A stretch of 42,530 nucleotides of DNA from IMG/VR virus record IMGVR_UViG_3300037515_000545, positions 1 to 42,530 of that record; one strand, 5' to 3'. Shown piece by piece: positions 2,000 through 27,982 of this stretch (position 1 is the first letter of the stretch; every line of letters starts with the position of its first letter). The position numbers and the translations under genes were made by a program. Under the pieces are notes generated by a model. The model saw only the letters and a list, made by a program, of their open reading frames with translations. It did not search any database and had not been told where the DNA came from. The stretch is from a virus. Lineage: Duplodnaviria; Caudoviricetes.

Positions 2000-3816
2000 A
2001 GTTCTCCTTCCACGATGATCCGGCCGACCGTTCCAACTCCGACAAGACTGGGCAGACTCCCGGGTACCACGACCGGCAGGAACGGCCCGTTAGAGCTAAA
2101 GCTGCCGGTGGCCGTAGACGTCTGGTTGGCTTGGCTGGCGGCCGCCGTGCCGGTGCGGGTTGGGATGGTGAACGTGCCCATACCCAACCCGGTTTGGGCG
2201 TCTTGGAAGGCTGCCAGGCTGCCGGTGAACAGCGGCGGGGTGAACAACCCTGACGCGGCGCTCGTGTTGTCTTCCTGTGTCCCGGCTGCCGTACCGGTGA
2301 CAGGGCCAGGGACAAACGTGCCGGTCGCCGTGGATGTGTCGTCCTCTTCGACAGCAGCCGCAGACCCGGTGAGAGTACCCGAGACGAACGTGCCCGACGC
2401 GGTGGACGTGTTGTCGGCTTGGGTCACCGCGGCGGTGGCAGTGAACGTCCCCGAGTCGAAAGTGCCCGACGCGGCCGAAGTCTGGTCGTCCTGTGTGGCG
2501 GCTGCCGACCCGGTGAAGACCGGGGCGGTGAACGTGCCTGTCGCTGTCGAAGTCTCGTCCTGTTGGGCGGCTGCGGCGGAACCGGTGAGAGTCGGATTGG
2601 TGAACGTCCCCGACGCTGACGACGTGTTGTCAGCCTGAGTGACCGCGGCGGAACCGGTGAACGAGTCGGCGGGTCCCACCGTGATTTGAGCTACTTCGGA
2701 ACCGGACGTCCAGGTTCCCGACCAGCCGAACACCTGATAGTCGTAGGCGGCTTCCGCCGGGGCGACGTCGGTGTACAGGTTGGGGACAGTCCGGGCTAAC
2801 GGTGTGTCACCGTCGGGGTCGAACACTGCACCGGTTTGGGGGGTGCGACGGAACACTGCGTAGTCCCAGCGGACACCCGACCCGGCGGACGTGTCGTCTC
2901 CTTGGGTGGGGCTGGCGGCACCGGTAAAGACGGGGGCGGTGAACGTACCGTTGGCGGTTGAAGTCTGGTCGTCTTGGACTGCTGCGCTTGAGCCGGTGAG
3001 GGTCGGGGTTGAGAATGAGCCGCTGGCAGTCGAAGTCTGGTTGTCTTGACTGGCGGCAGCCGAACCGACCAGTGTCGGATTCGTGAACGTGCCGCTAGCA
3101 GTGGACGTGTCGTCCTGTTGGGTGGGTGAGGCAGCACCGGTGCGGGTTGGTATGAAGAACGTGCCCGACGCGGTGGGCGTGTCGGCCTGCTGGCTGACGG
3201 CTGCGGACCCGGTGAAGGTTGGGGGAGTGTGAGTTCCTGCCGCTGCACTCGTGTCTGAAGCTTGGGTTACGGCCGCCGAACCGGTGAAGGTGGTAGAGGC
3301 TGGCGTGTAGGTGCCGGTGATCTCAGCGGCGAACACCCGTTCTTCAATGGCGTCCCCAGCCATGCTCTTGGTGATGACAAAGCGAAGTTCAACGATCGCC
3401 TCATCCCAGTCGGCTTTCGTCGCCGCGGTGTCGAGGCCGGTGAACTCATGGACAGACGAGTTGGTGGGGATGGTGGCGGTGATCCCCCCCGTTACGATTA
3501 TGTCGGCGTTGGTGAGTGCTGTGACACCGTCAGACTTGAACACCTTCGCGTCGATGCGGTCCCATGTGTTGTTGACTGGCGTGTCCGAGTTGGCGTAGCG
3601 GACCTGGATGGACAGGGTGTCCATATTCCCCAGATCCGAGTTCACGTTCTCGAGGGTGAACTTGGCTATCCCCGTATGAGACGTATTTGCAGTGTCGTGG
3701 ACGTTGGTGTTGTCGTCTGCCGAGGCGATCTCTTGGAGGACCGGCTCGGTGCCGGTGATCGCCGAGTCGTTGCCGTTAGTGAAGGTGCCGAGGGCGAGAG
3801 TGTTCAGGGTTGCCAT
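1996..3816 (-). CDS. Repeat-rich fibre-like virion protein (14 x 24-aa repeats plus a partial FN3-like insert)
   Basis: Consensus FTGSAAxTQxDxTSxASGTFxxPT in blocks of 6 and 8; located between capsid and connector genes. Confidence 0.75.
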   Translation of the reverse strand: MATLNTLALGTFTNGNDSAITGTEPVLQEIASADDNTNVHDTANTSHTGIAKFTLENVNSDLGNMDTLSIQVRYANSDTPVNNTWDRIDAKVFKSDGVTALTNADIIVTGGITATIPTNSSVHEFTGLDTAATKADWDEAIVELRFVITKSMAGDAIEERVFAAEITGTYTPASTTFTGSAAVTQASDTSAAAGTHTPPTFTGSAAVSQQADTPTASGTFFIPTRTGAASPTQQDDTSTASGTFTNPTLVGSAAASQDNQTSTASGSFSTPTLTGSSAAVQDDQTSTANGTFTAPVFTGAASPTQGDDTSAGSGVRWDYAVFRRTPQTGAVFDPDGDTPLARTVPNLYTDVAPAEAAYDYQVFGWSGTWTSGSEVAQITVGPADSFTGSAAVTQADNTSSASGTFTNPTLTGSAAAAQQDETSTATGTFTAPVFTGSAAATQDDQTSAASGTFDSGTFTATAAVTQADNTSTASGTFVSGTLTGSAAAVEEDDTSTATGTFVPGPVTGTAAGTQEDNTSAASGLFTPPLFTGSLAAFQDAQTGLGMGTFTIPTRTGTAAASQANQTSTATGSFSSNGPFLPVVVPGSLPSLVGVGTVGRIIVEGEL

Positions 3817-4085
3817 CAGGTCTCCCTACAACAGACGCCAGGTTCCGGCTGCCACCCCCCACACGACGTGATGTTCGGGTGTGCATCCCAAAACCGTTGC
3901 ACATTCTCCTGATAGCCGGGATCAGCGTGGACCGCCTCCCACGACCCGAGGACACGTCTCAACCCGCACACCCAACGTCTGCCAAGGATGGTGTTCTCCT
4001 CCAGATAACGGCACCGTTGCCCGTTGACGTAGCAACAGTGGTCGCCGTCCAGGGAACCTCGGCCCGTACAGTTAGAAGCTGGCAT
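3816..4085 (-). CDS. Cys-rich small protein (8 Cys; loosely YkgJ/CxxCxxCC-like)
   Basis: HCCY...CRYL...WVCG...CGGW...CC; overlaps both neighbours. Confidence 0.65.
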   Translation of the reverse strand: MPASNCTGRGSLDGDHCCYVNGQRCRYLEENTILGRRWVCGLRRVLGSWEAVHADPGYQENVQRFWDAHPNITSCGGWQPEPGVCCRET

Positions 4086-4920
4086 CCCACGTCAGGTCGA
4101 CGTTGGCACCGGTTTGGACGGCGGCAAGGTTCAGCGGGTCGAACGAACCCGACACGAACGTGCCGCTTGCGGTTGGCGTGTCGTTCGCCTGGGTTAGGCT
4201 TGCCGTCCCGGTGAAGACCGGCGGTGTGGACGTTCCCGCCGCCGAGGAGGTGTCGTTCTCTTGGGTTACCGCCGCCGACCCGGTGAACGTAGAAGAGCCA
4301 ATCTCGGATACGGCGATGGCGACGAATGCAACATCATCTGTTGCGCCCGTCCAGCCGATAGTGTGGTCGGCGGCGTCAACTGTCGTTTCGTAACAAGAAA
4401 CCCCACACCAAGCCCCAAAATCCTCGTCCTGGTCACGGGTGTTCCCGGTCACTTCTGTCAGGCTGGCGGGTCCAGCCAGACCGCTGCCTATCAGGCCGAT
4501 GCTTATCTTGTCTCGTCCCCCTGCTTGGAGCGTAACCTGGGGGTTGGCCTGGTTGTCAGCCAGAGAGTCGGAGTCGATGACTTCAAGGTCGGCATCACCC
4601 GACAACTCCCACACGACAAAATAGATGTCGGTGCCCGTAGCGGATATGAGGTCGGCGACAACGTCTTGTGTGCCTGCCGGAACGCCCGTACCCAGGAACC
4701 ACAGTTGGGCCGTGTTGGCCTCGCCGCCCACATCCTGGGCTTGCACCACCATGGAGAGAGCTACACCACCATAGGTAATGGTGCTGACAAGGACGGTGGT
4801 GGCCGCATGGATAACACCAACAACTATGCCCTCAGGTGTGCCCCCCGCATAAGAGAACGTCCACGGATCAGTGGTATCGATCCTGAAGGATTCTGCGGAG
4901 GCAACCCTGGCAACAGCCAT
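4072..4920 (-). CDS. Fibre-associated beta-rich virion protein with two 24-aa repeats
   Basis: Beta-sandwich-like N-terminus, two repeats, ends in PLNLAAVQTGANVDLTWDASF; RBS GGAG. Confidence 0.7.
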   Translation of the reverse strand: MAVARVASAESFRIDTTDPWTFSYAGGTPEGIVVGVIHAATTVLVSTITYGGVALSMVVQAQDVGGEANTAQLWFLGTGVPAGTQDVVADLISATGTDIYFVVWELSGDADLEVIDSDSLADNQANPQVTLQAGGRDKISIGLIGSGLAGPASLTEVTGNTRDQDEDFGAWCGVSCYETTVDAADHTIGWTGATDDVAFVAIAVSEIGSSTFTGSAAVTQENDTSSAAGTSTPPVFTGTASLTQANDTPTASGTFVSGSFDPLNLAAVQTGANVDLTWDASF

Positions 4921-12006: not shown

Positions 12007-12711
12007 CTAGACGATGCGGGCACCCTTGGCTGCGTTGCAGGCGAAGTGAGCAGCCTGCACGTTGGCCGGTTCGTGCGTGCCGCCAACAGCGAGCGGGACG
12101 ATGTGGTCGATCGTGGATGACATGCGGTGGGGGAAGATCAGCGACATGACGATCGGCAGTGAACAGAGCTGACAGGTGTAGTCGTCTCTCTTGAAGATCT
12201 CATGGCGGTTGACGTCTTCCACGAAAGCGCCGACCTCTCGAGCCCGACGACGGTGAGACAATTCGCGGCGGGCTTCTTGGATGCATACCTCTGAGCACGT
12301 GCCCTCACCGTTGGAAGGGATGAACAGCCCAGCACATATGACACATGGAGCAACCATCGGCAGATACCGAGCTGAACGTTCCTCGTTGAAACAGTCGAGA
12401 CAAATGCCCGCGTACACCGACGACTCGTCATTACAGCAGCGACACAGCTCGGGGTTGGGGTCGGCTAGCGCTTCTTCCCGCCAGGCCAGAGCGCACTCCT
12501 CCGAACAGAAGATCTTCTGGTAGAGAGAGAACACATCAAGTTCCCACTCGCTCGGTTTCGGCGTTGCGTAGTTGTCACACTGGCTGCACCAAGAGCCGCC
12601 CGTTGTGCGTCTGTGGCCGACTCGAGAGTCCCGGTACAGACAAGTATCGCCCTCCCGGCAGTCATATACGTTTCCCGCCACCTCCACTTTCCTCGGGGCT
12701 GGCCTAGACAT
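12007..12711 (-). CDS. HNH endonuclease with N-terminal Cys-rich zinc-binding repeats
   Basis: IFKRDDYTCQLC...TIDHIVPLAVGGTH..ANVQAAHFACNAAKG. Confidence 0.9.
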   Translation of the reverse strand: MSRPAPRKVEVAGNVYDCREGDTCLYRDSRVGHRRTTGGSWCSQCDNYATPKPSEWELDVFSLYQKIFCSEECALAWREEALADPNPELCRCCNDESSVYAGICLDCFNEERSARYLPMVAPCVICAGLFIPSNGEGTCSEVCIQEARRELSHRRRAREVGAFVEDVNRHEIFKRDDYTCQLCSLPIVMSLIFPHRMSSTIDHIVPLAVGGTHEPANVQAAHFACNAAKGARIV

Positions 12712-12850: not shown

Positions 12851-13470
12851 CCACTCGGATGTGGGACGACCACTTCGGCGCCGTTCACACTGAACGTAAG
12901 AAACGATTGCGGGCAGGCCGAACGGCGGTACCCACTGTTAGGGCATCCGTCGGCACGGCAACGCTTCGCTCCCGCAAGTATCCGAGTGCCGCACGTTTGA
13001 CAATAGGTCGACTCTCCCAGACGCCTGTGGCCGCAAGTGTCACAGGCCGCCCACGTTTTCGGATCGGTAGGACGGTTGAGGAACGCAACGACATTCTCGG
13101 ACAGCTCCCACAGTTGATTGTCAACCCGATTTTGCACGTTATCGGCCCACACCGGTTCGAATCGGGGCATCGGCGCATGTTGGGGTTTCCCCTTCACGGC
13201 CTCAAGGGTTTTCCCCTTCCCCGCAGATACGGATTCTGCAAGCCCGGCGAGAGCGTCGAGGAGCCGAGCGACAGTAGTGCCCAACGGAGAACCAAGGACG
13301 GTCAAAAGGTCCTCGGCTGTCGACGTTTTCGACGCAACCCGGTTAGTAACGGTGTGGTGGCGGAACTCGGATAGTCTGGCGAGCTCGACAGGCCAGTGTT
13401 TCGGACAGTTCCCGAGGTCGTCGAGCTCCCGTTCGCACTTGCCGCAGTATCGGGTTTGTGTCTCCTGCAT
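12847..13470 (-). CDS. Zinc-ribbon protein, possible late transcription regulator
   Basis: Several CxxC pairs; last gene of the early operon, abutting the late promoter. Confidence 0.6.
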   Translation of the reverse strand: MQETQTRYCGKCERELDDLGNCPKHWPVELARLSEFRHHTVTNRVASKTSTAEDLLTVLGSPLGTTVARLLDALAGLAESVSAGKGKTLEAVKGKPQHAPMPRFEPVWADNVQNRVDNQLWELSENVVAFLNRPTDPKTWAACDTCGHRRLGESTYCQTCGTRILAGAKRCRADGCPNSGYRRSACPQSFLTFSVNGAEVVVPHPSG

Positions 13471-13558
13471 TCCCTACCTTCCGTTTACGTTCTGACAGGT
13501 CGGGTCGTGGTCGGATTCGGTGACGACAACCCGGCAGGCCGGACATGTTTCGACAGTC

Positions 13559-13732
13559 TTACCCATCGGTCATCTCAGACTTCTCCGCTTCGCGAAGGAT
13601 CGCCCGCGCCTCGGCTTCCACCCAATTCCATCCACGGAGTGGCGGCAGCTCGCCGTTATAGAGCTTGGTTAGATACCGGCGCGCGTCTTCGACGGTCGGC
13701 TCATAACGGGGCTGTCGACGCAACCAGTTCAC
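13559..13732 (-). CDS. Hypothetical 57-aa protein
   Basis: GAGGA RBS, GTGA overlap with upstream stop; MNWLRRQPRYEPTVEDARRYLTKLY... Confidence 0.55.
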   Translation of the reverse strand: MNWLRRQPRYEPTVEDARRYLTKLYNGELPPLRGWNWVEAEARAILREAEKSEMTDG

Positions 13733-13890
13733 TCGTCCTCCTCAACTGGATGCACCGACAGCGAAATATGGCGAATCTCCCTACGTTCCACTCTCTCGGC
13801 CAGACATCGGAGGTAGTGGGCGATGTCATCGCTGCGGTGTTGCGGGTACTGCTTCACAAACTGGCAATCGCAATCGGTCGTGACGCTCAT
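13729..13890 (-). CDS. Hypothetical protein
   Basis: MSVTTDCDCQF...; tightly packed in the operon. Confidence 0.55.
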   Translation of the reverse strand: MSVTTDCDCQFVKQYPQHRSDDIAHYLRCLAERVERREIRHISLSVHPVEEDE

Positions 13891-13891
13891 C

Positions 13892-14017
13892 TCACTCGTC
13901 CTTCCTGTCTGACCCTTCGATCGGAATATCGAACTCGGCTTCGGTGTGATCCTGGCCGCGGACGCAAAGGCACAGAATCTCCATGCCGTCACTTGTGAAA
14001 CAGATGTGCAAGCTCAT
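13892..14017 (-). CDS. Hypothetical 41-aa Cys/His protein
   Basis: AAGGAG RBS, ATGA overlap; MSLHICFTSDGMEILCLCVRGQDH... Confidence 0.5.
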   Translation of the reverse strand: MSLHICFTSDGMEILCLCVRGQDHTEAEFDIPIEGSDRKDE

Positions 14018-14322
14018 TTCTCTCCTTCCAATATCAGCCTCGCCTGAGCCTCCCAAGGAGCACGAGCATGTCTACGCCAATCGTCGCCCAAAGGATCCGT
14101 CACATCGAAATTGGGAAGCCAACGCGCACGCAAGGCCAGGGCCATTGCTTCGAGGACAGCAGGGGAAGGAAGCCAGCCGATGCCGTTGCAGGAGGGACAG
14201 GGGTACTTCTGAGTGAACTCGGGTAGTGCGTTAGGGGGCCGTCCCGAATCAAGTTGCCCGCTCGTTCCGCATGTCTGGCAGGGCAGCCAGCCGAGACGAG
14301 AAGCAAGGTCAGCGGTGGTCAT
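14014..14322 (-). CDS. DnaJ-type zinc-finger motif protein
   Basis: CQTCGTSG and CPSCNGIG (CxxCxGxG-like). Confidence 0.65.
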   Translation of the reverse strand: MTTADLASRLGWLPCQTCGTSGQLDSGRPPNALPEFTQKYPCPSCNGIGWLPSPAVLEAMALALRARWLPNFDVTDPLGDDWRRHARAPWEAQARLILEGEK

Positions 14323-14575
14323 GACGCTTCCCCGCAAAGCACCCGTGGATATGAACGGAAGCCGGACAGGACGAACTGCCATCACATTCCGTCTCCCATT
14401 CATCGAACAGTGCGATTAGTTCACCCGTCGCCTCATTCACGACCAACCCGACTATGTAGAGGACGTCAGAAATGGCCCCATAGCTCGGGATCGGCCCACC
14501 CTCGGGAGAAACCCACTTAATGAATTGAGCACGAGCGTCCACCAACTGATCCTTTCCCATCCTGCCAACCATCAC
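14309..14575 (-). CDS. Hypothetical protein
   Basis: Coupled ORF with GAGGAG RBS and a C-terminal Cys/His cluster. Confidence 0.55.
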   Translation of the reverse strand: MMVGRMGKDQLVDARAQFIKWVSPEGGPIPSYGAISDVLYIVGLVVNEATGELIALFDEWETECDGSSSCPASVHIHGCFAGKRHDHR

Positions 14576-14844
14576 GTCTCCTCTCGTTCACCGACATCCG
14601 ACGAGAACAGGGCAGCGGTGAGAGCGGCACGGGCCACGTCACCGTCAGTCGGGCCCTTCTGTTCACAGCGCAGCTCATGAATGGTGATCGCTGCCCTCTC
14701 GACCATCTCCTCGGACGGTTCGGAGAGGACGATGCGCGAGCCGCCAGGGCAGATTCGGACAAGCCGCTGCTTCTCTGTGAACCAGGTGTGACCCTGCATC
14801 TCATGATGCTTACACGGCTCCTCGATCACGATGCGGCGGCTCAC
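14572..14844 (-). CDS. Hypothetical protein
   Basis: GTGA overlaps; EPSEEMVERAA...ARAALTAA motif. Confidence 0.6.
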   Translation of the reverse strand: MSRRIVIEEPCKHHEMQGHTWFTEKQRLVRICPGGSRIVLSEPSEEMVERAAITIHELRCEQKGPTDGDVARAALTAALFSSDVGEREET

Positions 14845-15128
14845 GTCTCCTCCTCAGCAGGGACGAGAAACTTCTTCACCATGCGGCAAGGCTCCCGCCA
14901 CGGCTTCACTTGTGCCGCCAACGCAGCCTCGCAACCATCGTCGTCGTTCACCCAAACCGACCCATGCGTCTCACACCATTGGACTTCGGGGGCTTCGACC
15001 ACGGCACGAGCAGCAGCAGCCACAATCTGAACCGGTGGACGACCCAACAGGCGATTTGCAACGGAATCAACCAGCGAAAGGGAACGCAACTCATCCAACG
15101 CTTCTTCTGTTCTTGTCCTATCCACCAT
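14841..15128 (-). CDS. Hypothetical protein (begins MVDRTRTEE)
   Basis: GGAG RBS, coupled; WCETH...C...C motif. Confidence 0.6.
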   Translation of the reverse strand: MVDRTRTEEALDELRSLSLVDSVANRLLGRPPVQIVAAAARAVVEAPEVQWCETHGSVWVNDDDGCEAALAAQVKPWREPCRMVKKFLVPAEEET

Positions 15129-15315
15129 CACTCCACCTGTTCTTCTCCACGCAGCGGTAACACAGACCGGTACGAAGCTTCTCGACCTCACGGATGGCCT
15201 CCTCCCATGCCTCCTTTGGCGTAATAGGCATAGCACCGTCGAACAGACCCACGGTTCTACGCAGTTCCAGTACAAGATCTATCAGGCTCGGCTCTGTGTG
15301 CGTCCTATCCACCAT
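15118..15315 (-). CDS. Hypothetical protein (begins MVDRTHTEP)
   Basis: GAGGAG RBS; 65 aa. Confidence 0.55.
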   Translation of the reverse strand: MVDRTHTEPSLIDLVLELRRTVGLFDGAMPITPKEAWEEAIREVEKLRTGLCYRCVEKNRWSDGG

Positions 15316-15352
15316 CACAGCGTCTCCTCGTAGGGGGTCACGGGGGTACCCA

Positions 15353-15514
15353 TCAGCCTGCGACCTCGCCATCTTCGGACTCGACGAGAACTTCATTGAA
15401 GATTCGCAACCAGTCCTCAGCCTCCCACCGCGCCATCTCCACGTCGCCATGCTGAGCTTCGGCGCTCTCCACATAGAGTTGCGCTGCACGGTCCAGATCG
15501 ATTCGTAATCTCAT
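15353..15514 (-). CDS. Hypothetical acidic protein
   Basis: ATGA overlap with upstream stop; MRLRIDLDRAAQ... Confidence 0.55.
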   Translation of the reverse strand: MRLRIDLDRAAQLYVESAEAQHGDVEMARWEAEDWLRIFNEVLVESEDGEVAG

Positions 15515-15729
15515 TTGGCTAGACACTCCTCCCATCCACACTGGTCGTGGTCACGACCATCGTTCTCAGTTGAGGAACACTTCAAGCCGAACAACGAACG
15601 GCAGAACCAGGTCGCCCTCAGATCACAAGGCAGACATTGCCAATACGGGTCACCAATGAAAGGAGAAACCCACGACAAATGCTCGCCACAACCAGGGCAA
15701 CGCTGCTCAAAGACGGTTCCCATCACCAC
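15511..15729 (-). CDS. Small zinc-finger protein
   Basis: CPGCG, CLPC and further Cys/His residues. Confidence 0.55.
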   Translation of the reverse strand: MVMGTVFEQRCPGCGEHLSWVSPFIGDPYWQCLPCDLRATWFCRSLFGLKCSSTENDGRDHDQCGWEECLAK

Positions 15730-15914
15730 ACCGTTTGCTTCCGTCCGTCACCCGTGCCACCACACGCCGAGCAGGGATGCATCTCCCCATCACAACCGCG
15801 GTAAGTGCATTGAATCCAGTCGTCGCACTCCTCCCAGGCATCGCCGCCGCACCATGAGCAGTTCAAGCCGTCCTCGTCGTAGTCGTCGTACCCATCTCCC
15901 ATAGGGATTCCCAT
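15723..15914 (-). CDS. Small DnaJ-type zinc-finger protein
   Basis: CSWCGG and CSACGGTG. Confidence 0.6.
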   Translation of the reverse strand: MGIPMGDGYDDYDEDGLNCSWCGGDAWEECDDWIQCTYRGCDGEMHPCSACGGTGDGRKQTVW

Positions 15915-16415
15915 CTAGCCCACCCCCTCACCACGAGCGCGTTTCAGGAATTTGAAAAATGGGTTGGATTCGTCAATCTCACTCTCACTGTCACTGTCGG
16001 TGTCACTGTCTCTCTCAGTGGTTAGTAAATCCGTCGTCTGACCTGGCGGTTTGTTGGTGTCTTTTAGGTCTCTTGGACGTGTGTTGAGCGTGTCATTCCA
16101 CTGTTCCCACGCTGTGATTTGCACGTCCGTGATGCGTCCGCGGCGTCTCTTCCGCGTCTTCTTCAACTGTCCCGTCACCTTCAAGAAGTCCACAAGCGGG
16201 AACGGAGGATTCAAAATCCCAAGTTCGAGCCACGCACCTTCCTCGCTGTGGTAGGTGAAGGTGCCCTGAATCGGAGCGCGTTTGGCAGCCGTCAACATGG
16301 CGACCCACACCGCCAATCCGGCTGGCCCGAACTCTTCTTGTAGGCGGGTGCCCGTCTTGTCATGCGGGAACTCAACTGAGAGTGGAATCCAACGGCGTCG
16401 GCGTCCATCACCCAC
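15915..16415 (-). CDS. Putative replication initiator / replisome organizer-like protein
   Basis: N-terminal WIPLSVEFPHD...GPAGLAVWVAML, I.AW..WN, and an ERDSDTDSDSESE low-complexity linker typical of the family. Confidence 0.6.
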   Translation of the reverse strand: MGDGRRRRWIPLSVEFPHDKTGTRLQEEFGPAGLAVWVAMLTAAKRAPIQGTFTYHSEEGAWLELGILNPPFPLVDFLKVTGQLKKTRKRRRGRITDVQITAWEQWNDTLNTRPRDLKDTNKPPGQTTDLLTTERDSDTDSDSESEIDESNPFFKFLKRARGEGVG

Positions 16416-16455
16416 ACCTAACCTGTCTCCCTGAGCTCGAGGTCGTACTGGGTGC

Positions 16456-17271
16456 TCATTGGGAGCCTTCTGGCAGGTTGAGGATGACGCCTTCACTGTC
16501 CCCCAACAATGTCTTGGGCAGTGCACCATCCCAACGTTGGAGCCACAGCCATTCCAGGTATTGGGCCGGGTTCAGGCCCAGCGAAGTGGCCCTGGCCTGC
16601 TCGGCTTGTGCTTGCAGTTCGATCTGGGCCTTCTTGGCCCTCTCAGCCTCCACCAACTTGAGTTGCTCTGCGGCTTCCTGGTCTGCGATCACCTTGTCCT
16701 TCACCGACTTGATGAAGTCGGGGTCGAACACAGCGTCCTCCAGGGCCACCGAGTGGACGGCAATGCCCCGCTCAGCGAGCTGCGGGGTGACGATATCCTC
16801 GATGTCCTCGGCTATGGAAGCCAGTTCTGAGGCGAAGGACAGGGCCACCCGTTGGCCGCTGGCCTCCTTGATGGCGTCGAAGAAAATGGGCTCGATGATG
16901 CGCAGGGTGTACTCTGGTCCCACCGCATCGAAGATCTCTGCCGCCTGGTCCGGCGTTATTGAATAGACTAACGATGCGCGGACAGTGATCTCCTGAAGGT
17001 CGGAGGATTGGACGAAGGCGTTGGCCTTCCCTTCGCCGTCGATGGTGACATACCGCTGCTCGCGGACATCGACCCGGTGGTAGCGCTGTACCAGTGGCAC
17101 CACGAAGGAGAGACCGGGCTGACGTTCAGCGTAGGAGACGCCGCCTACCGACCAGATCACCGAACGATGCCCAAATGGGGTGATAACCAACGTCGAGTAG
17201 ATCAGGCCGGCCACGGCCAACCCTGTACCGATCCTAAACAGAACCTTTAGTTTTGAGCCCTTAGTCGCCAC
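16456..17271 (-). CDS. SPFH/band 7/prohibitin family membrane protein
   Basis: N-terminal TM, PGLSFVVP.VQ....DVR, SSDLQEI, coiled-coil K.IA.QEA...EAE, C-terminal RWDGALP. Confidence 0.93.
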   Translation of the reverse strand: MATKGSKLKVLFRIGTGLAVAGLIYSTLVITPFGHRSVIWSVGGVSYAERQPGLSFVVPLVQRYHRVDVREQRYVTIDGEGKANAFVQSSDLQEITVRASLVYSITPDQAAEIFDAVGPEYTLRIIEPIFFDAIKEASGQRVALSFASELASIAEDIEDIVTPQLAERGIAVHSVALEDAVFDPDFIKSVKDKVIADQEAAEQLKLVEAERAKKAQIELQAQAEQARATSLGLNPAQYLEWLWLQRWDGALPKTLLGDSEGVILNLPEGSQ

Positions 17272-17746
17272 GGATGTTTCCCTCTCTGTCGTTTCCTTCC
17301 CGGTCCCCGGTTCTACTTTCCCCGCCCGTGATGGGCCTGGCTGAAGAGATCACATCCCCCGGATAGGGGAACCTGCGGTTCCACGATGCGGTGATGGTGC
17401 CTATGGCCGTGGGCCACATTTGCCTCTCGGCCATGACTATCTCGCAATCCCCCTGGGTGATGGCCAGTCCCTTGGCGATGATGCCACGGCAGAAGGCCGG
17501 CTGGACTGCCTGCCAGTTGACGGTGGCATCCTGACTGGTGGTGGCCATGCATTCGGCCATGTCTGACTCGGAGCCCTGGCCCTGCGTGGTGGCGTAGACC
17601 TCCCCGGCACATTGCCCTCCCGCTGCGGACTCCACAAGCACTTGCCGATTGGCGTCCAAAAGCGGGATGGAAGACACTGGTAGCACCAGAAGGGCTAACC
17701 CGACGACAAGGACAACGAACCCTCCTATGGCAAGTAGCCGGTTCAT
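17261..17746 (-). CDS. Single-pass membrane protein with a 4-Cys extracytoplasmic domain
   Basis: Hydrophobic N-terminus (LLAIGGFVVLVVGLALLVLPV); overlaps both neighbours. Confidence 0.75.
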   Translation of the reverse strand: MNRLLAIGGFVVLVVGLALLVLPVSSIPLLDANRQVLVESAAGGQCAGEVYATTQGQGSESDMAECMATTSQDATVNWQAVQPAFCRGIIAKGLAITQGDCEIVMAERQMWPTAIGTITASWNRRFPYPGDVISSARPITGGESRTGDREGNDREGNIRGD

Positions 17747-19713
17747 ACCCCGTGCCCCTCCAATAGTGAGTGAACCTCGTCGCCCATCATGGTCGGCTTA
17801 GCTACCAGGGCGTCCGCCAGCGCCGTCAGGGCGTCGGGGTGTTCGGCCAGGATCGAATGTGCCAGATCGAGCCCATCCTGAAGAATGTTCTCCCGCTCCT
17901 TATGGAACTCCTCAGGATCTCGACCCATGCTGAAAGAGATTTGGAGTCCATGCCCGTACAAGACCATCTTCTCAGCCAGCCAGGTGGCGTGAGGACCGTC
18001 ACCACCGTGACCGTTGGAGTATTGGCCGAGGATGATCCCTTCGGCTGCACGGCTGGCCAGGGAGATGGCCACATTGGCCAGCATCTCGTCGTGCTGTTGC
18101 TGCCAGTCGTCGTCCAGGGGGGAGCGGGCCACCATGCCGCCGGTTCGCCCCCGCTGTTCGATCGAAGCAAACCAGATGCGGACCCGATCCTTCAGAAGGT
18201 GGTGCATGACCACGGCGTGGCCGGCCTCATGGACCGCCACCGCCCGCACGTTGTCCGGGTTCTCGAATACTCCTTCGGACTCACCGAACCGTTTCCACAA
18301 CATCGCCTGGGTGGCGTTGTCAAAGCTGACGGTCCCGGCGTCGTTACCGTCCCTGAAGCTGATCAGTATGGCCTCGTTTACAATGTCCTGGATTTCCGCG
18401 CCTGTGCCCTTGTGATGGTTGCGGGCCAGCCACTCGATCTGTTCGGGCTCTAGCCCGTGTGTGACCTTTCCCAGATAGCCGTTGTAGGTTGCCAGTCGTC
18501 CGTCGTACTTCGGGAAGTCCACACGAATCTCTCTACCGAATCGGCCTGCTCGCTTAAGAGCAGGGTCAACCACTGAGGGTCGATTAGTTGCGCCAAGGTA
18601 GAAAGGTCGTACCTTGGGCGGGGGGAGGGGCTTAAAACCCGCCAATGCCAATAGCTTGTTAACCAGTCCACGGGGTTCCTCCATTCCGTCCATCATTGAC
18701 AGGAACGCTTCCAGCGTCCCCATATTCATCCCGCCGCCACCCGTCACGATGACCGGGTAGAACTGCGGATCGGAAGCCATACAACCCAACTCCGCGGCGG
18801 CGAACCAGGGATCGGTGCCCTCCACCTCACCACCACGGTGGCCCAACACGTCGATCTCGTCGAAGAAGACGATTACCCCCCCATGCCGTTTGGACAGCTT
18901 GCGGATGTACCGCCCGAGCTGCCACACCTTCAAGAAGTTGATGCCGATGAACGTGGAGGCGAACGCCCCCGGCGGAATCAGGATCAGAGGTTTGGTGGAG
19001 GCATTGGCCGCAGCCTTGGCCAGCATGGTCTTCCCGGTGCCGGGAGGGCCGGTGAGGAGCATGCCTTTCGGCATGTAGCCGCCCGCCTTGGTTACGGCGG
19101 CATCGTTCTCCAACAATGCGACCTGTTCGGACACCCTGTTACGGGCATGGTCCTGGCCGTAAATGTCATCGAAGGTGACGTCGATGGTGCCGGGCGGCAC
19201 GATCTTGACGAACCCGACCTTCGTCAGGGCGATGAACATGAAGGCCATCTGCATCAGGCCGAAGGCCACACCCAACAAGATTTGGAGCACCATCGGGATC
19301 TGCTCTATGAACAGGTTGACCGAAAGGAGGGCACACTGGAAACCACCGTCACAACGTTCCGTAAACAACGAAATGATTTGGCCGTACACCCATAGGCCAG
19401 CCAGGACGATGAGGACCCTGCGGACCCGGTATCGGGCGTTCTCGTCGATGCGGTCCTTGGCCGTCTCCCATGACTGCTTGTAGGCTTCAGCCCTAGCCAC
19501 CGCCTCAGTGCTGTTCTCCAACTTGAAACGGATGAACTGTTTAATGACCTCGAAGACGAGCATGGCGTAAACGAGCCATGCGCCAGGCGACTTCAACCAC
19601 GGGAGAGGGTCGACATACTCGAGGGCGTAGGCCAGAACCACCAGGAAGAGGACACGCTTGGTACGTTCAAAGGTGGGAAGCGGCGGGCGGAGTTTCATTT
19701 CCACCGCCGCCAT
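17743..19713 (-). CDS. ftsH: FtsH-like membrane-anchored AAA+ zinc metalloprotease (peptidase M41); true start probably ATG at 19698
   Basis: About 4 TM segments; VTFDDIYG; PKGMLLTGPPGTGKTMLAKA; pore loop FIG; VFFDEID; ATNRP..VDPALKRAGRFGR; TGAEI..IVNEA; AVHEAGH; RAAE; G..GD. Confidence 0.93.
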   Translation of the reverse strand: MAAVEMKLRPPLPTFERTKRVLFLVVLAYALEYVDPLPWLKSPGAWLVYAMLVFEVIKQFIRFKLENSTEAVARAEAYKQSWETAKDRIDENARYRVRRVLIVLAGLWVYGQIISLFTERCDGGFQCALLSVNLFIEQIPMVLQILLGVAFGLMQMAFMFIALTKVGFVKIVPPGTIDVTFDDIYGQDHARNRVSEQVALLENDAAVTKAGGYMPKGMLLTGPPGTGKTMLAKAAANASTKPLILIPPGAFASTFIGINFLKVWQLGRYIRKLSKRHGGVIVFFDEIDVLGHRGGEVEGTDPWFAAAELGCMASDPQFYPVIVTGGGGMNMGTLEAFLSMMDGMEEPRGLVNKLLALAGFKPLPPPKVRPFYLGATNRPSVVDPALKRAGRFGREIRVDFPKYDGRLATYNGYLGKVTHGLEPEQIEWLARNHHKGTGAEIQDIVNEAILISFRDGNDAGTVSFDNATQAMLWKRFGESEGVFENPDNVRAVAVHEAGHAVVMHHLLKDRVRIWFASIEQRGRTGGMVARSPLDDDWQQQHDEMLANVAISLASRAAEGIILGQYSNGHGGDGPHATWLAEKMVLYGHGLQISFSMGRDPEEFHKERENILQDGLDLAHSILAEHPDALTALADALVAKPTMMGDEVHSLLEGHGV

Positions 19714-19910
19714 CTCTGGTACCTGGTTTCCCCCACCTGACGGACTTTCACCATGAACTCCTCGAGGTCACGGTCGTCAGCCAGCCAACGGCCCGGTGCA
19801 CATTTGGCGTGCAAAGAGAAACCATGCGACACGACGTCCGCGCCGGACCGGTCGCAGACAACACAATCGGAATCCACGGCAGCCAACTTCGCCAACAGCT
19901 CGGTTGTCAT
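19695..19910 (-). CDS. Hypothetical zinc-binding protein
   Basis: ATGA overlaps at both ends; CVVC...HAKC. Confidence 0.6.
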   Translation of the reverse strand: MTTELLAKLAAVDSDCVVCDRSGADVVSHGFSLHAKCAPGRWLADDRDLEEFMVKVRQVGETRYQRWRRWK

Positions 19911-20230
19911 ACCCGGCACTCTGAGCATGATTCGACAACCCGTTTCCGGCCGACCAGCATCGGGTTGGCATACCCTTTCGCCCCGCACCGGCATTTGACC
20001 GCTTTGGGTTTCAGGTGGGAGTGCAACGGCAGCCAAGCACCACGACTACGGGCAGGCGGCTGCTGTCTCTTCTTCCTCTTCACCGCGCCAATCTGGAAGG
20101 CGACGTGGGCTGCCCTACAGGCCGGGCAGGTCGGCTCCCCGGCTTCAAGATGCCGGTCGTAGCCCCGTGGTGTCCCCGTCGCCGGTTTACCCTTATTCGG
20201 GCCGTGCTTAAGCGGGGCACGGCAGCTCAC
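19907..20230 (-). CDS. Zinc-binding protein with a GT..GY.RH..AGE..C..CR.AH domain
   Basis: Domain also found in 36992..37480 and 38417..38995. Confidence 0.7.
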   Translation of the reverse strand: MSCRAPLKHGPNKGKPATGTPRGYDRHLEAGEPTCPACRAAHVAFQIGAVKRKKRQQPPARSRGAWLPLHSHLKPKAVKCRCGAKGYANPMLVGRKRVVESCSECRV

Positions 20231-20658
20231 AGCTTGCCTCGGGTCATTGGGTTCAGCCCTCCAAGACGGCGTCGATAGCGAAGAAACAAGACACTGAACG
20301 TGAAGTCGGGAGATCTAACGCTGACATCTTCGGGTGCGAACCGCCCGTCCAACCGCAGCTTGGCGAAGTTGGATTGCAGTCGATACTCGGCGGTCCGTAG
20401 CGAAGAATACGAGGTGGGTTCGGCGGGTTCGATGGCCGTCAGACGTTCGGGAATCGCCGCATACAACACTGGTACGGCTCGAGATATCCGCCAGTCGTAG
20501 TCGACCTGGTCATCCGCACCATAAAGCCTCGCCAACACCACGTCCGCCTGTTCGCCAACAGGGCCACCCTCCCGCTCCAGCAGCACAGAAGGGTCGTTGT
20601 TGATGACGTATTCAGCCTGTTCACGAAGCAGCGGTTTTATTCTTGACCACTTGCTCAT
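20227..20658 (-). CDS. Hypothetical protein
   Basis: TGATG coupling; MSKWSRIKPLL... Confidence 0.6.
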   Translation of the reverse strand: MSKWSRIKPLLREQAEYVINNDPSVLLEREGGPVGEQADVVLARLYGADDQVDYDWRISRAVPVLYAAIPERLTAIEPAEPTSYSSLRTAEYRLQSNFAKLRLDGRFAPEDVSVRSPDFTFSVLFLRYRRRLGGLNPMTRGKL

Positions 20659-20927
20659 CACAAGGTTTTCCATTCGCTGCGGGTTTCCACCCCACCAATC
20701 CTCGACCCGTCAAACGGTTTCGCCGACTGGCGGGGCAACCCGGCCATCTGCACTACACGGTGGTCGACCAAACCCCGCATCCGAAGACGGAACAACGCTT
20801 TCTCCACCGACTCCTGAAGGGCGTCCGGGAGCATGAGGGTGACACCCGCTGTGGTCAGCCAAGAGCCGTCGGTTTCCAACACGTCGAGCACTCGAACCGG
20901 GAGTCCGTTGGCGTGCATGCTCTTCAC
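20658..20927 (-). CDS. Putative winged-helix DNA-binding protein
   Basis: VLDVL....WLT..........SV.KAL.RL...GLV pattern. Confidence 0.55.
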   Translation of the reverse strand: MKSMHANGLPVRVLDVLETDGSWLTTAGVTLMLPDALQESVEKALFRLRMRGLVDHRVVQMAGLPRQSAKPFDGSRIGGVETRSEWKTL

Positions 20928-21178
20928 GCCGCCCTCCTCCTAGCCCGCTCCTGTTGGCGTTGCTTCGGCGTCATCCCACCCCACACACCTTCAGGCTGAC
21001 GTGACGTAACCGCATAATCGCCGCATTCGACGGTCACAGGACAGCCACCGCAGACACGTTTCGCCTCTTTCGCCCTCGCCATGTCCGCCCGTTTACGGCC
21101 GCCAGCAGGACCCCCGGGAACCGCGAAAAACAGGTCAGGGTCCACACCCAGGCAGGCGGCATGGTCCCGCCAGTTCAC
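20924..21178 (-). CDS. whiB: WhiB-family Fe-S transcription factor
   Basis: W...AAC...DPDLFF...AK.VC.GCPV...C...GVWGGMT...R. Confidence 0.95.
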   Translation of the reverse strand: MNWRDHAACLGVDPDLFFAVPGGPAGGRKRADMARAKEAKRVCGGCPVTVECGDYAVTSRQPEGVWGGMTPKQRQQERARRRAA

Positions 21179-22635
21179 ACTGTCACCTCGTCGAAGAAGA
21201 ACGGTCCGACCCGCTCGCGGGCCAACTCCAGGTTCCGCTCGTCCAAGTCGATGCCGATGGAGTCGTGGCCGTGGCCGTGAGCGACCATCAGGGTCGTACC
21301 GGAGCCGGCGAATGGGTCGAGGACGAGTCCGGGGCGATAGTCGTCGTGGCCACAGTCAGTCCAGCCGAACTCCCTGGGGGTCTTGATTGTCCGGTTGTAC
21401 GCAAACCCGCCAAGCCTTCCCGCAGGGTTCACTTCATTGGGTGCAATGAGTGCCTTGACAGGTCGCTCCTTGTCTAGAGGCACCTGCTCGTAGGCATCAT
21501 CGGGCGGGAATGCGTCATCTAGGTCATCAATCAGGTCCAAAACGACCTTGACCTTCTGCCACATCTCCCAGGGAGGCAGGTGTCCACCGACCTCCCAGTC
21601 CCACACATTGTTCGCTCCTACGCCGAGCGCTGACGCCAAAGCCTGACGAGACAGACTCTTCGCTTCACGGGCTTTAACTACGACTTCCGGTATGAGTCGG
21701 CGAGAGGCAGACGAGCCGTGTGCGATCCGTCTGCTCGGCTGCCCGCACGTCCGGCAAACTTTCTCCGGGGTCATCGCCTTCACCAACGACACCACCAGTT
21801 CAGGCGGGAACACCGCGTAGTGGCTTCCCTTGTAGCCGCCGGGGGGTATCTCCCAGTAGTCGAGGAGGGGAGCGCCGCCGGTTACCTCGACGTTCGGGAA
21901 CGAATCCCAGTTGCCGTCGCGTCCCATCGCCGGTTCTCCCTGGCGTAGTCGTGGCCGTTCGACTCTCGGCGTGTCCTTCCTCGTCGCCAGGTCATCCCAA
22001 TACCGTTTCCCCGACAGGCACGCCACCACCACGTCGGACGTAGCCGGACGCCACTTATCCCCAAGAGCCCCTACAGGAGGGTTGGGGCGGCACCACGTCA
22101 CCACATTCCGTATCCGCCATTGTCCTGCCGGTGAGGGCTGACCGGTTAGCGGGTTGAACCCGTAGGCGAGGGCGATCCGGTACAGCTCGGGGATGAGGGT
22201 CTTGGACTTGGCGAGCGGCCAATCGCCCCCGGCCTTCGTGCCGCGGCTGTTGTTGGCCAAGTTGCGGGCATCAGCGCCTCGTCGTGAATCGCCTGCCGAG
22301 CGCTGCGCGTAGACGGGTTGTCCCTCCCGCCATCCGTCGTCGGCGTAGTCGCCACCAGCGCCACCAGACCCCGCATACGTGTCACCTAGTTCGATGGCGA
22401 TGCTCCCGTGCGGGGCCAACACCCGCCGCAGTTCGGCAGTCACCTTCAACAGGACGTCGATGAACTCGGCGGGGGTCGCCTCCGAGCCGATCTCCTTCGC
22501 CTTGTCCGGGTGATCGCTAGGCAAATAACTGCGAAGAGCTAAAAAGGGCGGACTGGATATGCAGACGTCCACGGACCCGTCGTCGATGGTGGCGAGCCCG
22601 TCGAACACGTCAGCCACCAGGTAGCGGACGGTCAC
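21175..22635 (-). CDS. Beta-class amino DNA methyltransferase (probably N4-C) with an inserted XRE HTH
   Basis: SPPF catalytic motif near the N-terminus, H.AVFP.ELV, VLDPFAGSGTT SAM motif near the C-terminus. Confidence 0.9.
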   Translation of the reverse strand: MTVRYLVADVFDGLATIDDGSVDVCISSPPFLALRSYLPSDHPDKAKEIGSEATPAEFIDVLLKVTAELRRVLAPHGSIAIELGDTYAGSGGAGGDYADDGWREGQPVYAQRSAGDSRRGADARNLANNSRGTKAGGDWPLAKSKTLIPELYRIALAYGFNPLTGQPSPAGQWRIRNVVTWCRPNPPVGALGDKWRPATSDVVVACLSGKRYWDDLATRKDTPRVERPRLRQGEPAMGRDGNWDSFPNVEVTGGAPLLDYWEIPPGGYKGSHYAVFPPELVVSLVKAMTPEKVCRTCGQPSRRIAHGSSASRRLIPEVVVKAREAKSLSRQALASALGVGANNVWDWEVGGHLPPWEMWQKVKVVLDLIDDLDDAFPPDDAYEQVPLDKERPVKALIAPNEVNPAGRLGGFAYNRTIKTPREFGWTDCGHDDYRPGLVLDPFAGSGTTLMVAHGHGHDSIGIDLDERNLELARERVGPFFFDEVTV

Positions 22636-22991
22636 GCTGACACCCCCAAAGAGTCCCTCAGCTTCTTCAACGTTTCATACCGGTAAGCCCAGTCGACCTT
22701 CCGATACTCCAAAGCCAACGTTTTCAGTTCGTCCCACTGGCCGGGAAACCGGGCTTCAACCCACTCCCGCCATTCGAGAGGCCGGTGGGTGAACTTCACA
22801 TGGCATCCCCGGCAGAGGGCGACAGCGTTGTGGAAGTCGGTTCGGATCGACTTGTACGACCGGGAGATCAGGTGGGCGCACTGCAGGTTGTCGGGTGAAC
22901 CACAGTTCTGGCAGACACGGTCCCGGTCTCTCACCAACTGTGAGAACAGGACGTCCGACTTGCGCATCCAGTCCTGCCGCTTCTTGGTCAC
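22632..22991 (-). CDS. NinG/Rap-like HNH-fold recombination endonuclease
   Basis: D.LFS..VR.RD..C..CG....LQCAH.ISR....R....N...LC..CH. Confidence 0.8.
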   Translation of the reverse strand: MTKKRQDWMRKSDVLFSQLVRDRDRVCQNCGSPDNLQCAHLISRSYKSIRTDFHNAVALCRGCHVKFTHRPLEWREWVEARFPGQWDELKTLALEYRKVDWAYRYETLKKLRDSLGVSA

Positions 22992-25470: not shown

Positions 25471-25691
25471 AGGGCGTCCACCCATGAGGCAAAGACAATC
25501 AGCAGCAGCCACACGGCCACCAGCAGGAACGGCCAAACCTCGGGGCCGGCCGTCGTCCAACGGAACCGGTCGTCCAAACGGGCGTACCGGTGGCAGTCGC
25601 GGCAGCGTGCCCGCCACAGGAACGAGGTGGCCGTGGTGACACGAAGTTCGCCACGGCAGGCGGGACACTCGTCACGGCGGACGTACGTCAT
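25467..25691 (-). CDS. Zinc-ribbon membrane protein
   Basis: CPAC and CRDC plus a C-terminal TM helix. Confidence 0.6.
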   Translation of the reverse strand: MTYVRRDECPACRGELRVTTATSFLWRARCRDCHRYARLDDRFRWTTAGPEVWPFLLVAVWLLLIVFASWVDAL

Positions 25692-26347
25692 GTGTTCTCC
25701 AGTGCAAGGACGCCTTGGGCGAGACGTTGGACAGCTATCTCGCAGTACTTCTCTTCGATTTCGATGCCGATAGCGCGGGAGCCTCGTGCGCGAGCAGCAA
25801 TAAGAGTGGAGCCGCTCCCCAAATATGGGTCCAAAACAAGTCCGTAGGGCGGCATGAACTCATCGAGGAGCCACCGCATTAGCGTGACGGGTTTCTGGGT
25901 AGGGTGCAGAAAGCCTTCGTCGGAATCTCGCTCCGATCCATCCCACTGAATTGCAGCCTTGTGAGTCCGGCCCGTGACATTCGACCAGGCCAACTCGACG
26001 TCGGAGGACATGAATCCTCGGCGCTTTCCCATCGGTTTCTTGTCCCAAATGATCCACCCGCCCGATATGGGGAGTCTGTTGGCGTACCAATTCGCTCCCC
26101 ACAGAATCACGTTCGGGAACCGAAGCAAGGGGGTGGGGTCGAACGTCTCATTGTCGCCAACCACGGAAGGAACTATCCATTGCGTCCGTCGGCTCCGTTC
26201 TCGCCCATCGCGCTGCGCCTTGTACGCCATCCCATACGGAGGGTCTGTGAGAACCAGCCCAACGTCCGCGACCTCAATAGAGGGCAGCACTTCTCGACAG
26301 TCGCCGTGGTAGATGGTGATCCCGTCCTCGTCGTAGTAGGGGGTCAT
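25688..26347 (-). CDS. Beta-class DNA methyltransferase (probably N6-adenine)
   Basis: TDPPYG, HPTQKP, VLDPYLGSGST. Confidence 0.93.
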   Translation of the reverse strand: MTPYYDEDGITIYHGDCREVLPSIEVADVGLVLTDPPYGMAYKAQRDGRERSRRTQWIVPSVVGDNETFDPTPLLRFPNVILWGANWYANRLPISGGWIIWDKKPMGKRRGFMSSDVELAWSNVTGRTHKAAIQWDGSERDSDEGFLHPTQKPVTLMRWLLDEFMPPYGLVLDPYLGSGSTLIAARARGSRAIGIEIEEKYCEIAVQRLAQGVLALENT

Positions 26348-26957: not shown

Positions 26958-27350
26958 TCACGCGGACACCCTGGCCTTGAGTAGTCGACGGCACTCCCGA
27001 CATTCACGCCACCCGCGGGCGTCTCGACCCGAGTACTGATGCCCCCGCGGGCAAAGGGTCTTTCTGGCGTTGACCGTGGTGACCTGAGTGGGGGAGCGGC
27101 GCAGATTCTCCCGATGCGTCACGGCCTCAAGATGATCGGGTCGGACGCAGTGCCGGACCCGGCAAAGATGGTCGATCGTCAGACCCTCAGGGATGGGGCC
27201 GATCACCCACTCGTAGGCGTAGCGGTGGATGTAGACCTTCTCACCCTCAGCGACGAACCTGGCATAGCCCGAAGGCTCGAGGGCCCCGGTCCACAGCCAG
27301 CAGTCGCCCGACGAGTCAACCTTCGACCAGAAGCGTTGTTCCGGTGTCAT
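26958..27350 (-). CDS. HNH homing endonuclease (HNH_3 type)
   Basis: RFWSKV....CWLWTG...GY...HR.AY....GPIP.GL.IDHLC....CV.PDHL..VT..EN; CPRGH. Confidence 0.92.
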   Translation of the reverse strand: MTPEQRFWSKVDSSGDCWLWTGALEPSGYARFVAEGEKVYIHRYAYEWVIGPIPEGLTIDHLCRVRHCVRPDHLEAVTHRENLRRSPTQVTTVNARKTLCPRGHQYSGRDARGWRECRECRRLLKARVSA

Positions 27351-27529
27351 GTCTTCGTCTCGTCGCGCTGGCTGGGGGCGGGGAGATGAAGCCTGTCGAG
27401 ATGCCAGTAGACGCCTTGGGGGCTCATGTTGAGGGCGTTGGCGATACGGATGGCCGACCATCCGGCCGTGTACAACCGAAGGACCGCGTCCGCCTTTGAC
27501 TCCCTACCGGTGGTTCGTAAAGTCGTCAT
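27347..27529 (-). CDS. Small HTH protein, Cro-like first gene of the early operon
   Basis: GWSAIRIANALNMSPQGVYWHL HTH; immediately downstream of a consensus promoter. Confidence 0.8.
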   Translation of the reverse strand: MTTLRTTGRESKADAVLRLYTAGWSAIRIANALNMSPQGVYWHLDRLHLPAPSQRDETKT

Positions 27530-27537
27530 TACGGAAG

Positions 27538-27566
27538 ACTGTAATTCCGAAGTGGGGGCTTGTCAA
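27538..27566 (-). promoter_or_regulatory. Leftward early promoter, likely near-leaderless
   Basis: TTGACA (27566-27561), 17 nt spacer, TACAGT (27543-27538); ATG follows 8 nt later with no RBS. Confidence 0.8.
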
Positions 27567-27588
27567 GTAGGCAATGTTCCGATATGGT
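27560..27588 (+). promoter_or_regulatory. Rightward promoter for the repressor-like gene
   Basis: TTGTCA (27560-27565), 17 nt spacer, TATGGT (27583-27588). Confidence 0.7.
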
Positions 27589-27658
27589 CTTACCTGTGAA
27601 GTGCTTCCGGGGCAGAAGCTCTGATGGAATCCCGGGTAGAGAGCAAGGAGGCTCGACA

Positions 27659-27982
27659 ATGGCACGCAGCACGACACAGCCGACAACCGAACTAGGCCGT
27701 CAACTAGAGAAGGAGCGGGTTAACCGCAACCTGAAAATGCAGGGGATGGCCGACTACCTCGGAGTGTCGAAACCGACCTACCTCGGCTGGCTACGAGGTA
27801 CCAGACCCCAATCACACCACCTTGAGCTCATCGCAGAGAAGCTCGACACCAAGCCTGGTTCGGTTCTCGGGTGGGTGCTTGTTTCCAGCGGACTTGTCAT
27901 AACGTGGAAAGAGGACCAGGGCGAATGGTTCCCCCGGCCTATCGACATTCAGGTTGACACTGCAACCCTGGTGGCCGCCTGA
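27659..27982 (+). CDS. XRE-family HTH regulator (CI-like, no peptidase S24 domain)
   Basis: AAGGAGG RBS; L...R..RNL....MA.YLGVS..T...W.RG.RP....L..IA..L. Confidence 0.85.
   Translation: MARSTTQPTTELGRQLEKERVNRNLKMQGMADYLGVSKPTYLGWLRGTRPQSHHLELIAEKLDTKPGSVLGWVLVSSGLVITWKEDQGEWFPRPIDIQVDTATLVAA

Follow-up and report, generated by a model that had tools for sequence, protein, structure and literature searches.

Complexes of the membrane protease FtsH with SPFH proteins are known as cellular or organellar machines on which phages depend, as with lambda CII, and not as phage cargo. In E. coli, the periplasmic domains of FtsH touch the SPFH domains of HflK, and HflK/C both raises and lowers the degradation of membrane substrates (PMC12048511, accessible part). 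An FtsH of the jumbo phages MIJ3 and PA5oct has been published, with its function given as unknown in the accessible text (PMC6892783), and an FtsH-annotated gene is mentioned for an Erythrobacter phage (excerpt of PMC9127768). Lone phage SPFH genes have been described as well (PMC10269572; 10.64898/2026.10.24.761521; excerpts of both); FtsH does not occur in the available main text of the latter, whose supplementary tables could list such neighbours. Here, we describe three adjacent genes of IMG/VR virus record IMGVR_UViG_3300037515_000545, which was analysed over its whole length of 42,530 bases (the window). They encode an FtsH-type protease, a middle protein named Mid, and a prohibitin-like SPFH protein, and this trio is a conserved phage module. 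A preliminary description of the same DNA had known of no characterised small phage with an FtsH of its own beside an SPFH protein. Phage FtsH itself has a precedent in the jumbo phages; a full-text literature search, with most subscription journals outside its reach, returned no description of a phage FtsH–SPFH module; the paired module is real, conserved, and apparently new to print. As to function, we give an even chance to the reading that the trio would be a private membrane protease machine with which the phage removes particular host membrane proteins early in infection. The three genes are:

17743..19713, minus strand: FtsH-type AAA+ zinc metalloprotease; 656 residues from 19713, probably 651 residues from the ATG at 19698
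17261..17746, minus strand: Mid, 161 residues; single N-terminal membrane helix and four-cysteine domain
16456..17271, minus strand: prohibitin-like SPFH protein, 271 residues; N-terminal membrane helix

The genes are consecutive and overlapping, as had been stated: protease and Mid share an ATGA at 17743-17746, and Mid and SPFH overlap by 11 nucleotides at 17261-17271. Together, they take up about 3.3 kb, or 7.7% of the genome, close to the early estimate of 8%. The second ATG, at 19698, is the probable start of the protease and forms an ATGA with the stop codon of the gene before it. Exactly three residues precede the conserved RPP position in 9 of the 30 closest homologues, which is the commonest length.

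The conservation of the trio was evident from other viral contigs. Five pattern scans of IMG/VR (148 loci) found a family protease on five distinct contigs of 23, 41, 43, 82, and 92 kb, and all five carry protease, Mid, and SPFH genes in the same order on one strand. Other genes, such as a methyltransferase or DUF6197, are inserted within the trio in three of the five, with the order unchanged. The trio resides on at least three unrelated backbones, since the capsid protein of the record matches two of the five carriers (71-73%) and its terminase only one; three of the five carrier records are linear and possibly fragments. Among 405 loci examined, Mid and the SPFH clade of the module were present only beside a family protease. 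A Mid-based DNA scan gave six loci and Mid on one of them, an already-known contig. A one-sided test of contig sizes pointed in the same direction, as matching longest-contig sizes numbered nine for protease and Mid, eight for protease and SPFH, and nine for Mid and SPFH (jittered means of 0.4, 0.3, and 0.8, respectively), and four such sizes are common to all three. Giant open reading frames of about 1900 residues were seen near the module in two loci (L336:3-5840 and L337:107-5872); that of L336 has LPD1 and ADP-ribosyltransferase domain matches, as in phage polyvalent proteins.

The protease is a single chain, in which an AAA+ module and then an M41 domain follow an N-terminal membrane anchor. 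Its features are as follows:

19219..19674, minus strand: membrane domain, residues 14-165; four hydrophobic helices, two short outer loops, no periplasmic domain
19333..19353, minus strand: C121-C127 pair in the second predicted outer loop, in 102/102 family members
19027..19050, minus strand: Walker A GPPGTGKT (sequence and family alignment)
18943..18951, minus strand: pore loop 1, FIG (family alignment)
18850..18867, minus strand: Walker B F-F-D-E-I-D (family alignment)
18541..18591, minus strand: second region of homology with N377, R388, and R391 (family alignment)
18217..18231, minus strand: zinc-binding HEAGH (family alignment)
17998..18000, minus strand: D572 (GHGGD) at the third zinc-ligand position, 102/102; role inferred from FtsH homology

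A hidden Markov model search, which the preliminary description had recommended, matched all three families named there: Peptidase_M41 (E 5e-20) and AAA (E 1e-18) in the protease, both above curated cut-offs, and Band_7 in the SPFH protein. The best 120 of 1255 protease matches are 42-96% identical to the query, and 101 of them were aligned with it to give 102 sequences of 44-96% identity. All of the FtsH motifs that had been listed proved intact: K228, D285, E286, N377, R388, R391, H495, E496, H499, and D572 are each identical in 102/102 members, and the pore-loop residue F255 is conserved in 100/102. An AlphaFold model (mean predicted local distance difference test score 90.7) gave fold matches to FtsH and AFG3L2 at E 1e-28 to 1e-24. 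The protein nevertheless departs from canonical FtsH, as it scores 212.6 bits against the equivalog TIGR01241 (cut-off 600) and has four helices and no periplasmic domain, whereas the canonical layout has two helices around a periplasmic domain. The contigs behind the best 120 of 1255 matches exceed 100 kb in only 1 of 118 distinct sizes, which would fit a viral origin.

The mean number of lysine and arginine residues per anchor segment across the family is 4.0, 0.7, 11.1, 1.5, and 1.9. Because of this charge distribution, an in-out-in-out-in path is predicted, with the ATPase and protease in the cytoplasm. The residues C121 and C127 are absent from 18/18 aligned cellular paralogs and likely form a disulfide specific to the phage clade. 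A long insertion between Walker B and the second region of homology (18600-18850, residues ~290-370) splits the Pfam AAA match; it contains C311, conserved in 98/102, and a conserved segment EPRG..N...GF.PLP. Two further family proteases of about 1000 residues (P0090 and P0091) harbor intein-like insertions with LAGLIDADG matches, the former just after the zinc helix and the latter in pore loop 1; in both, the first residue is Ala and the last residues are HN. Inteins prefer conserved sites of needed genes.

The SPFH protein comprises an N-terminal membrane helix, a Band_7 domain (PF01145, E 1e-25, 90.9 bits against a cut-off of 23.6), and a coiled-coil region. The assignment to the SPFH superfamily thus stands, but the likeness to HflK and HflC that had been proposed gives way to prohibitin: in a profile comparison with solved structures, prohibitin was matched at E 1e-30 and HflC at about 1e-3, and prohibitins are the best PDB matches. 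The scores against the HflK/HflC families fall below their cut-offs (TIGR01933, 21.3 vs 159.4 bits; TIGR01932, 29.3 vs 134.4 bits), and the locus holds a single SPFH gene and no HflK and HflC pair. Relatives of this protein number 54 matches at 40-85% identity. From its charge distribution, the N terminus is predicted inside and the domain outside.

Mid had been characterized as a protein with a single membrane helix and four cysteines, and both traits were confirmed. It has no family match in Pfam, PHROGs, or NCBIfam, and judged by sequence would constitute a new family, with 56 close matches and 83 unnamed profile matches among representatives at 50% identity. Behind the N-terminal helix lies a predicted outer domain, whose four cysteines are conserved in 102, 102, 104, and 104 of 104 aligned sequences, together with two conserved tryptophans; a C-terminal RTGDR tail is conserved though predicted disordered. 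Fold searches with the model of Mid gave no Foldseek match at E<=0.001 and a best VIA-align Z of 2.9, and no usable hit was obtained from the Atlas; a new fold does not follow from these negatives. The charge distribution predicts the N terminus inside and the domain outside. A complex prediction of protease residues 8-175 with Mid scored 0.01 (mark 0.32), a value that neither supports nor opposes binding.

A phylogeny against host FtsH and its paralogs had been suggested as a check on the origin of the protease. In the final tree (58 of 91 rows, with the long-branch L020 and the duplicate P0114 removed), the phage family forms one distinct clade (Shimodaira–Hasegawa-like approximate likelihood ratio test, SH-aLRT, 99.5), separate from canonical FtsH and from the FtsH of MIJ3, and sister to a chromosomal actinobacterial paralog (support 100). 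Among 401 sampled Actinomycetota genomes, 23 hold this four-helix paralog at full length; the survey scored three candidates per genome, and its sample includes the seed genome and genomes marked unpublished. A gene with a lipobox lies upstream in 14 of 16 paralog loci as read (one of them, L131, from an unpublished genome), and no published description of this paralog–lipoprotein pair was found. In the Atlas, the lipoprotein of L131 falls among unnamed actinobacterial lipoproteins, with a weak lead to PsbP (12% of one cluster). The zinc motif of the paralog reads HEACH or HEASH (loci L129, L130, L050, and L385-L396), and the gene 3' of it often reads, by eye, like a cysteinyl-tRNA synthetase.

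Mid was not found in the 401 Actinomycetota genomes, while the same search recovers it in 5/5 viral records; a lone chromosomal match of 19 bits contains three internal stops and was dismissed as chance. An SPFH match at E<=1e-15 occurs in 4 of 301 genomes, with 100-134 bits compared to 305-331 for members of the module, and the short flanks of these four contain no FtsH and no Mid. As Mid was not found and the chromosomal SPFH matches are few and distant, the module looks as if phages put it together from parts of separate origin.

The trio could also be host DNA that was passively captured not long ago, or a product of chimeric assembly, and both had been named at the outset as grounds for refutation. 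Nothing was found in their favor. Recent capture is unlikely because Mid was not found in the 401 actinobacterial genomes searched; in addition, the phage clade is distinct, and the best chromosomal protease scores 562 bits against 938-1085 for viral members. The trio is not confined to this record, and neither host synteny nor a break in coverage at its edges was seen. Its GC content at third codon positions (0.73-0.76) is like that of core phage genes (0.73-0.80), and in one run, which may be the source sample, contigs 13000-16731 and 19245-21870, both at a depth of 26.7, bridge the two module edges; no contig listed for that run covers the whole module. Sixteen of 21 listed differences inside the trio are synonymous, a weak indication taken from the best-supported 40 of about 900 rows. 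Capture or chimerism is thus effectively refuted and very improbable.

Further FtsH-like genes were found in viral sequences. Five viral contigs (L009, L010, L011, L013, and L021) carry a separate FtsH-like clade that groups loosely with the FtsH of MIJ3, with no Mid or module-type SPFH gene nearby. The FtsH of Microcystis phage MaAM05 was not counted as a phage precedent, since it lies among glgX, proS, and lepA (L384, 196542-207621) and looks host-derived. Most other matches to 'phage' FtsH in GenBank are unannotated fragments and may be host DNA.

The same three-part machine might serve as general membrane quality control, which keeps the membrane of a stressed or slow-growing host working until burst and has no specific target. 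The linkage of the three genes fits this idea equally. A horizontally moved FtsH2 lies on a stress-tolerance island (PMC10850787, excerpt), the MIJ3 authors speculate, in the accessible text, that a phage FtsH maintains host viability (PMC6892783), and huge phages commonly have SPFH genes next to genes for membrane stress (10.64898/2026.10.24.761521, available text). However, canonical FtsH, often along with additional paralogs, is already encoded in actinobacterial genomes, and a dedicated, phage-only, disulfide-rich partner would suggest specificity. We therefore regard quality control as unlikely, although it comes first among the alternatives.

The genomic setting bears on the time of action and on the host. 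The record is a whole circular virus genome with a 127-nucleotide terminal repeat, and nearly every gene is on the minus strand. Family searches (Pfam and PHROGs) recognized head, tail, and lysis genes of a siphovirus-type genome, including terminase, portal, protease, capsid, tail, amidase, and holin genes, besides recombination, methylase, and WhiB genes. A helix-turn-helix gene on the minus strand (27347-27529) is divergent from a repressor-like gene on the plus strand (27560-27982). The genes downstream of the former encode a methylase, an exonuclease, an annealing protein, and WhiB, followed by the trio and then other small genes. From this position downstream of the helix-turn-helix gene, the trio looks like part of an early leftward operon; the holin gene is in the late region. 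A scan for promoters and terminators gave signals no better than shuffled sequence. The host is likely an actinobacterium, because WhiB is present (as in three of four other carrier records searched) and, among cultured phages, those of Gordonia and Mycobacterium give the best matches to the capsid (37-38% identity). Elsewhere in the window, two genes of 72-nucleotide (24-residue) repeats in 11 copies lie in the head-tail region (1996-4920, minus strand) and have no family match in Pfam or PHROGs. There are also two DNA methylase genes (21175-22635 and 25688-26347) and six HNH/endonuclease VII genes (12007-12711, 22632-22991, 26958-27461, 35286-35822, 36992-37480, and 38417-39022), three of which sit among tail genes.

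The divergent pair that heads the operon is also one reason to consider a phage regulatory switch, in which Mid would respond to a signal from outside (the state of the cell wall, a peptide, or a superinfecting phage) and gate the proteolysis of a phage or host regulator, so that the phage would internalize the FtsH-HflKC control known from lambda CII. The conservation of the outer domain of Mid is in keeping with such a role, as is a tyrosine integrase-family gene in two of five carrier records searched. In contrast, searches for tyrosine and serine recombinases were negative in this record and in two other carriers, nothing resembling CII was identified as a target, and the sensor role is conjecture; a switch is accordingly less probable than quality control. 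With no integrase detected, the divergent pair (27347-27982) may be a relic switch or reflect a non-integrating temperate lifestyle. Superinfection exclusion by a lysogen, one of the uses that had been suggested, fits poorly because the trio is in the early leftward operon and no integrase was detected. Holin turnover, another suggested use, may be considered as well, with the holin gene placed among the late genes.

Targeted removal of host membrane proteins, the reading that we favor, can be broken down into steps of falling certainty: co-expression, activity, topology, docking of Mid, and substrates. The three genes would be co-expressed as part of the early leftward operon, and the protease, judging from its residues, would be active as a cytoplasm-facing FtsH-type hexamer. 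According to the predicted topology, the SPFH and Mid domains would lie outside the membrane, where charge distribution and the four conserved cysteines place them, and the ATPase and protease inside. A prohibitin-type cage may form on the outer face of the membrane, with Mid as an outer adaptor between cage and protease. Mid could stand in for the missing periplasmic domain, dock the protease to the cage, and probably also pick substrates. It would thereby provide an outer contact in trans, a part that the lipoprotein may play for the cellular paralog; the phage-specific outer pair C121/C127 would be part of the Mid-facing surface. Substrates would be particular proteins of the host membrane; the most plausible are defence effectors or proteins that serve in entry or as receptors. 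A bolder version, which we think rather improbable, is that phages combined a host FtsH paralog with a prohibitin of phage type and a new adaptor into a three-part machine built de novo; the adaptor would provide in trans the outer domain usual in FtsH and would aim the protease at membrane-bound anti-phage effectors.

Alternatively, the three proteins may act in one process but form no single complex: the SPFH protein would organize membrane patches, and the protease would work alone or be mixed into hexamers of the host paralog. Lone phage prohibitin-like genes, the genes that can sit between the three, and the membrane anchor that the host paralog shares all agree with this scenario. Against it, order and membership are kept in 6/6 genomes read, on unrelated backbones, and the invariant catalytic residues oppose a purely poisoning subunit. 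It is doubtful and falls behind the switch. Overall, targeted removal is followed by quality control, the regulatory switch, and the lack of a stable complex, in this order.

Several observations weigh against the machine as proposed. Human prohibitin was not co-purified near-stoichiometrically with its AAA protease, according to the available part of 10.1101/2025.04.21.649849, and hence the pairing of SPFH proteins with proteases can be loose. Prohibitin-like genes occur in 10 cultured-phage records (24-28% identity), none of which is among 36 records with FtsH matches. For the three proteins, pairwise identities rise and fall together over 10 trios (rho 0.55-0.70, Mantel p 0.0002-0.004), 4 of which were paired solely by equal contig size; as related genes share a history, the covariation indicates co-inheritance and not co-evolution at an interface. 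Of the Mid and SPFH contigs that are long enough, 9 of 20 and 8 of 15, respectively, matched in size a contig of the best 120 of 1255 proteases, and genomic context was read for six family members out of more than 100. We infer topology, Mid docking, and substrate choice from gene linkage, topology prediction, and analogy, and nothing in the sequence points to a substrate.

If defence or receptor proteins are the targets, the module would represent a new mode of host takeover. If an adaptor aims it at anti-phage effectors, the module would counter host defence through targeted proteolysis at the membrane and would be a minimal single-operon FtsH-prohibitin complex. The 3.3-kb form, with one operon, one SPFH protein, and no periplasmic domain, may offer a minimal system to study how an SPFH cage recruits a protease and how membrane substrates are chosen. 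The analysis also points to a four-helix FtsH paralog of Actinomycetota that has a lipoprotein partner and is apparently undescribed.

Five known systems are closest to the module. The lone SPFH proteins of Fusobacterium phage Fnu1 and Burkholderia phage CSP3 (PMC10269572, excerpt) belong to the same superfamily at 24-28% identity. The FtsH of the jumbo phages MIJ3 and PA5oct (288-kb genome) is about 24% identical to the protease described here and lies on the canonical side of the tree, and no SPFH or Mid gene is present within 5 kb of the MIJ3 gene. The chromosomal four-helix paralog of Actinomycetota is the sister clade and has a homologous membrane domain, but C121/C127 are missing from it, its C-terminal tail is longer, a lipoprotein gene lies upstream of it, and neither Mid nor an SPFH protein is encoded nearby. 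Mitochondrial PHB1/2 with the m-AAA protease (10.1101/2025.04.21.649849, available part) is similar in that the SPFH profile is closest to prohibitins and the protease model matches AFG3L2; the phage has one SPFH gene instead of two, and Mid has no detected counterpart there. E. coli FtsH-HflK/HflC (PMC12048511, accessible part) likewise pairs a membrane AAA+/M41 protease with an N-terminally anchored SPFH protein, in a predicted opposite-face topology. In contrast to the E. coli complex, the phage trio is encoded in one operon, has a single prohibitin-like SPFH protein in place of the HflK/HflC pair, and joins a four-helix protease without the HflK-binding periplasmic domain to an extra partner, Mid.

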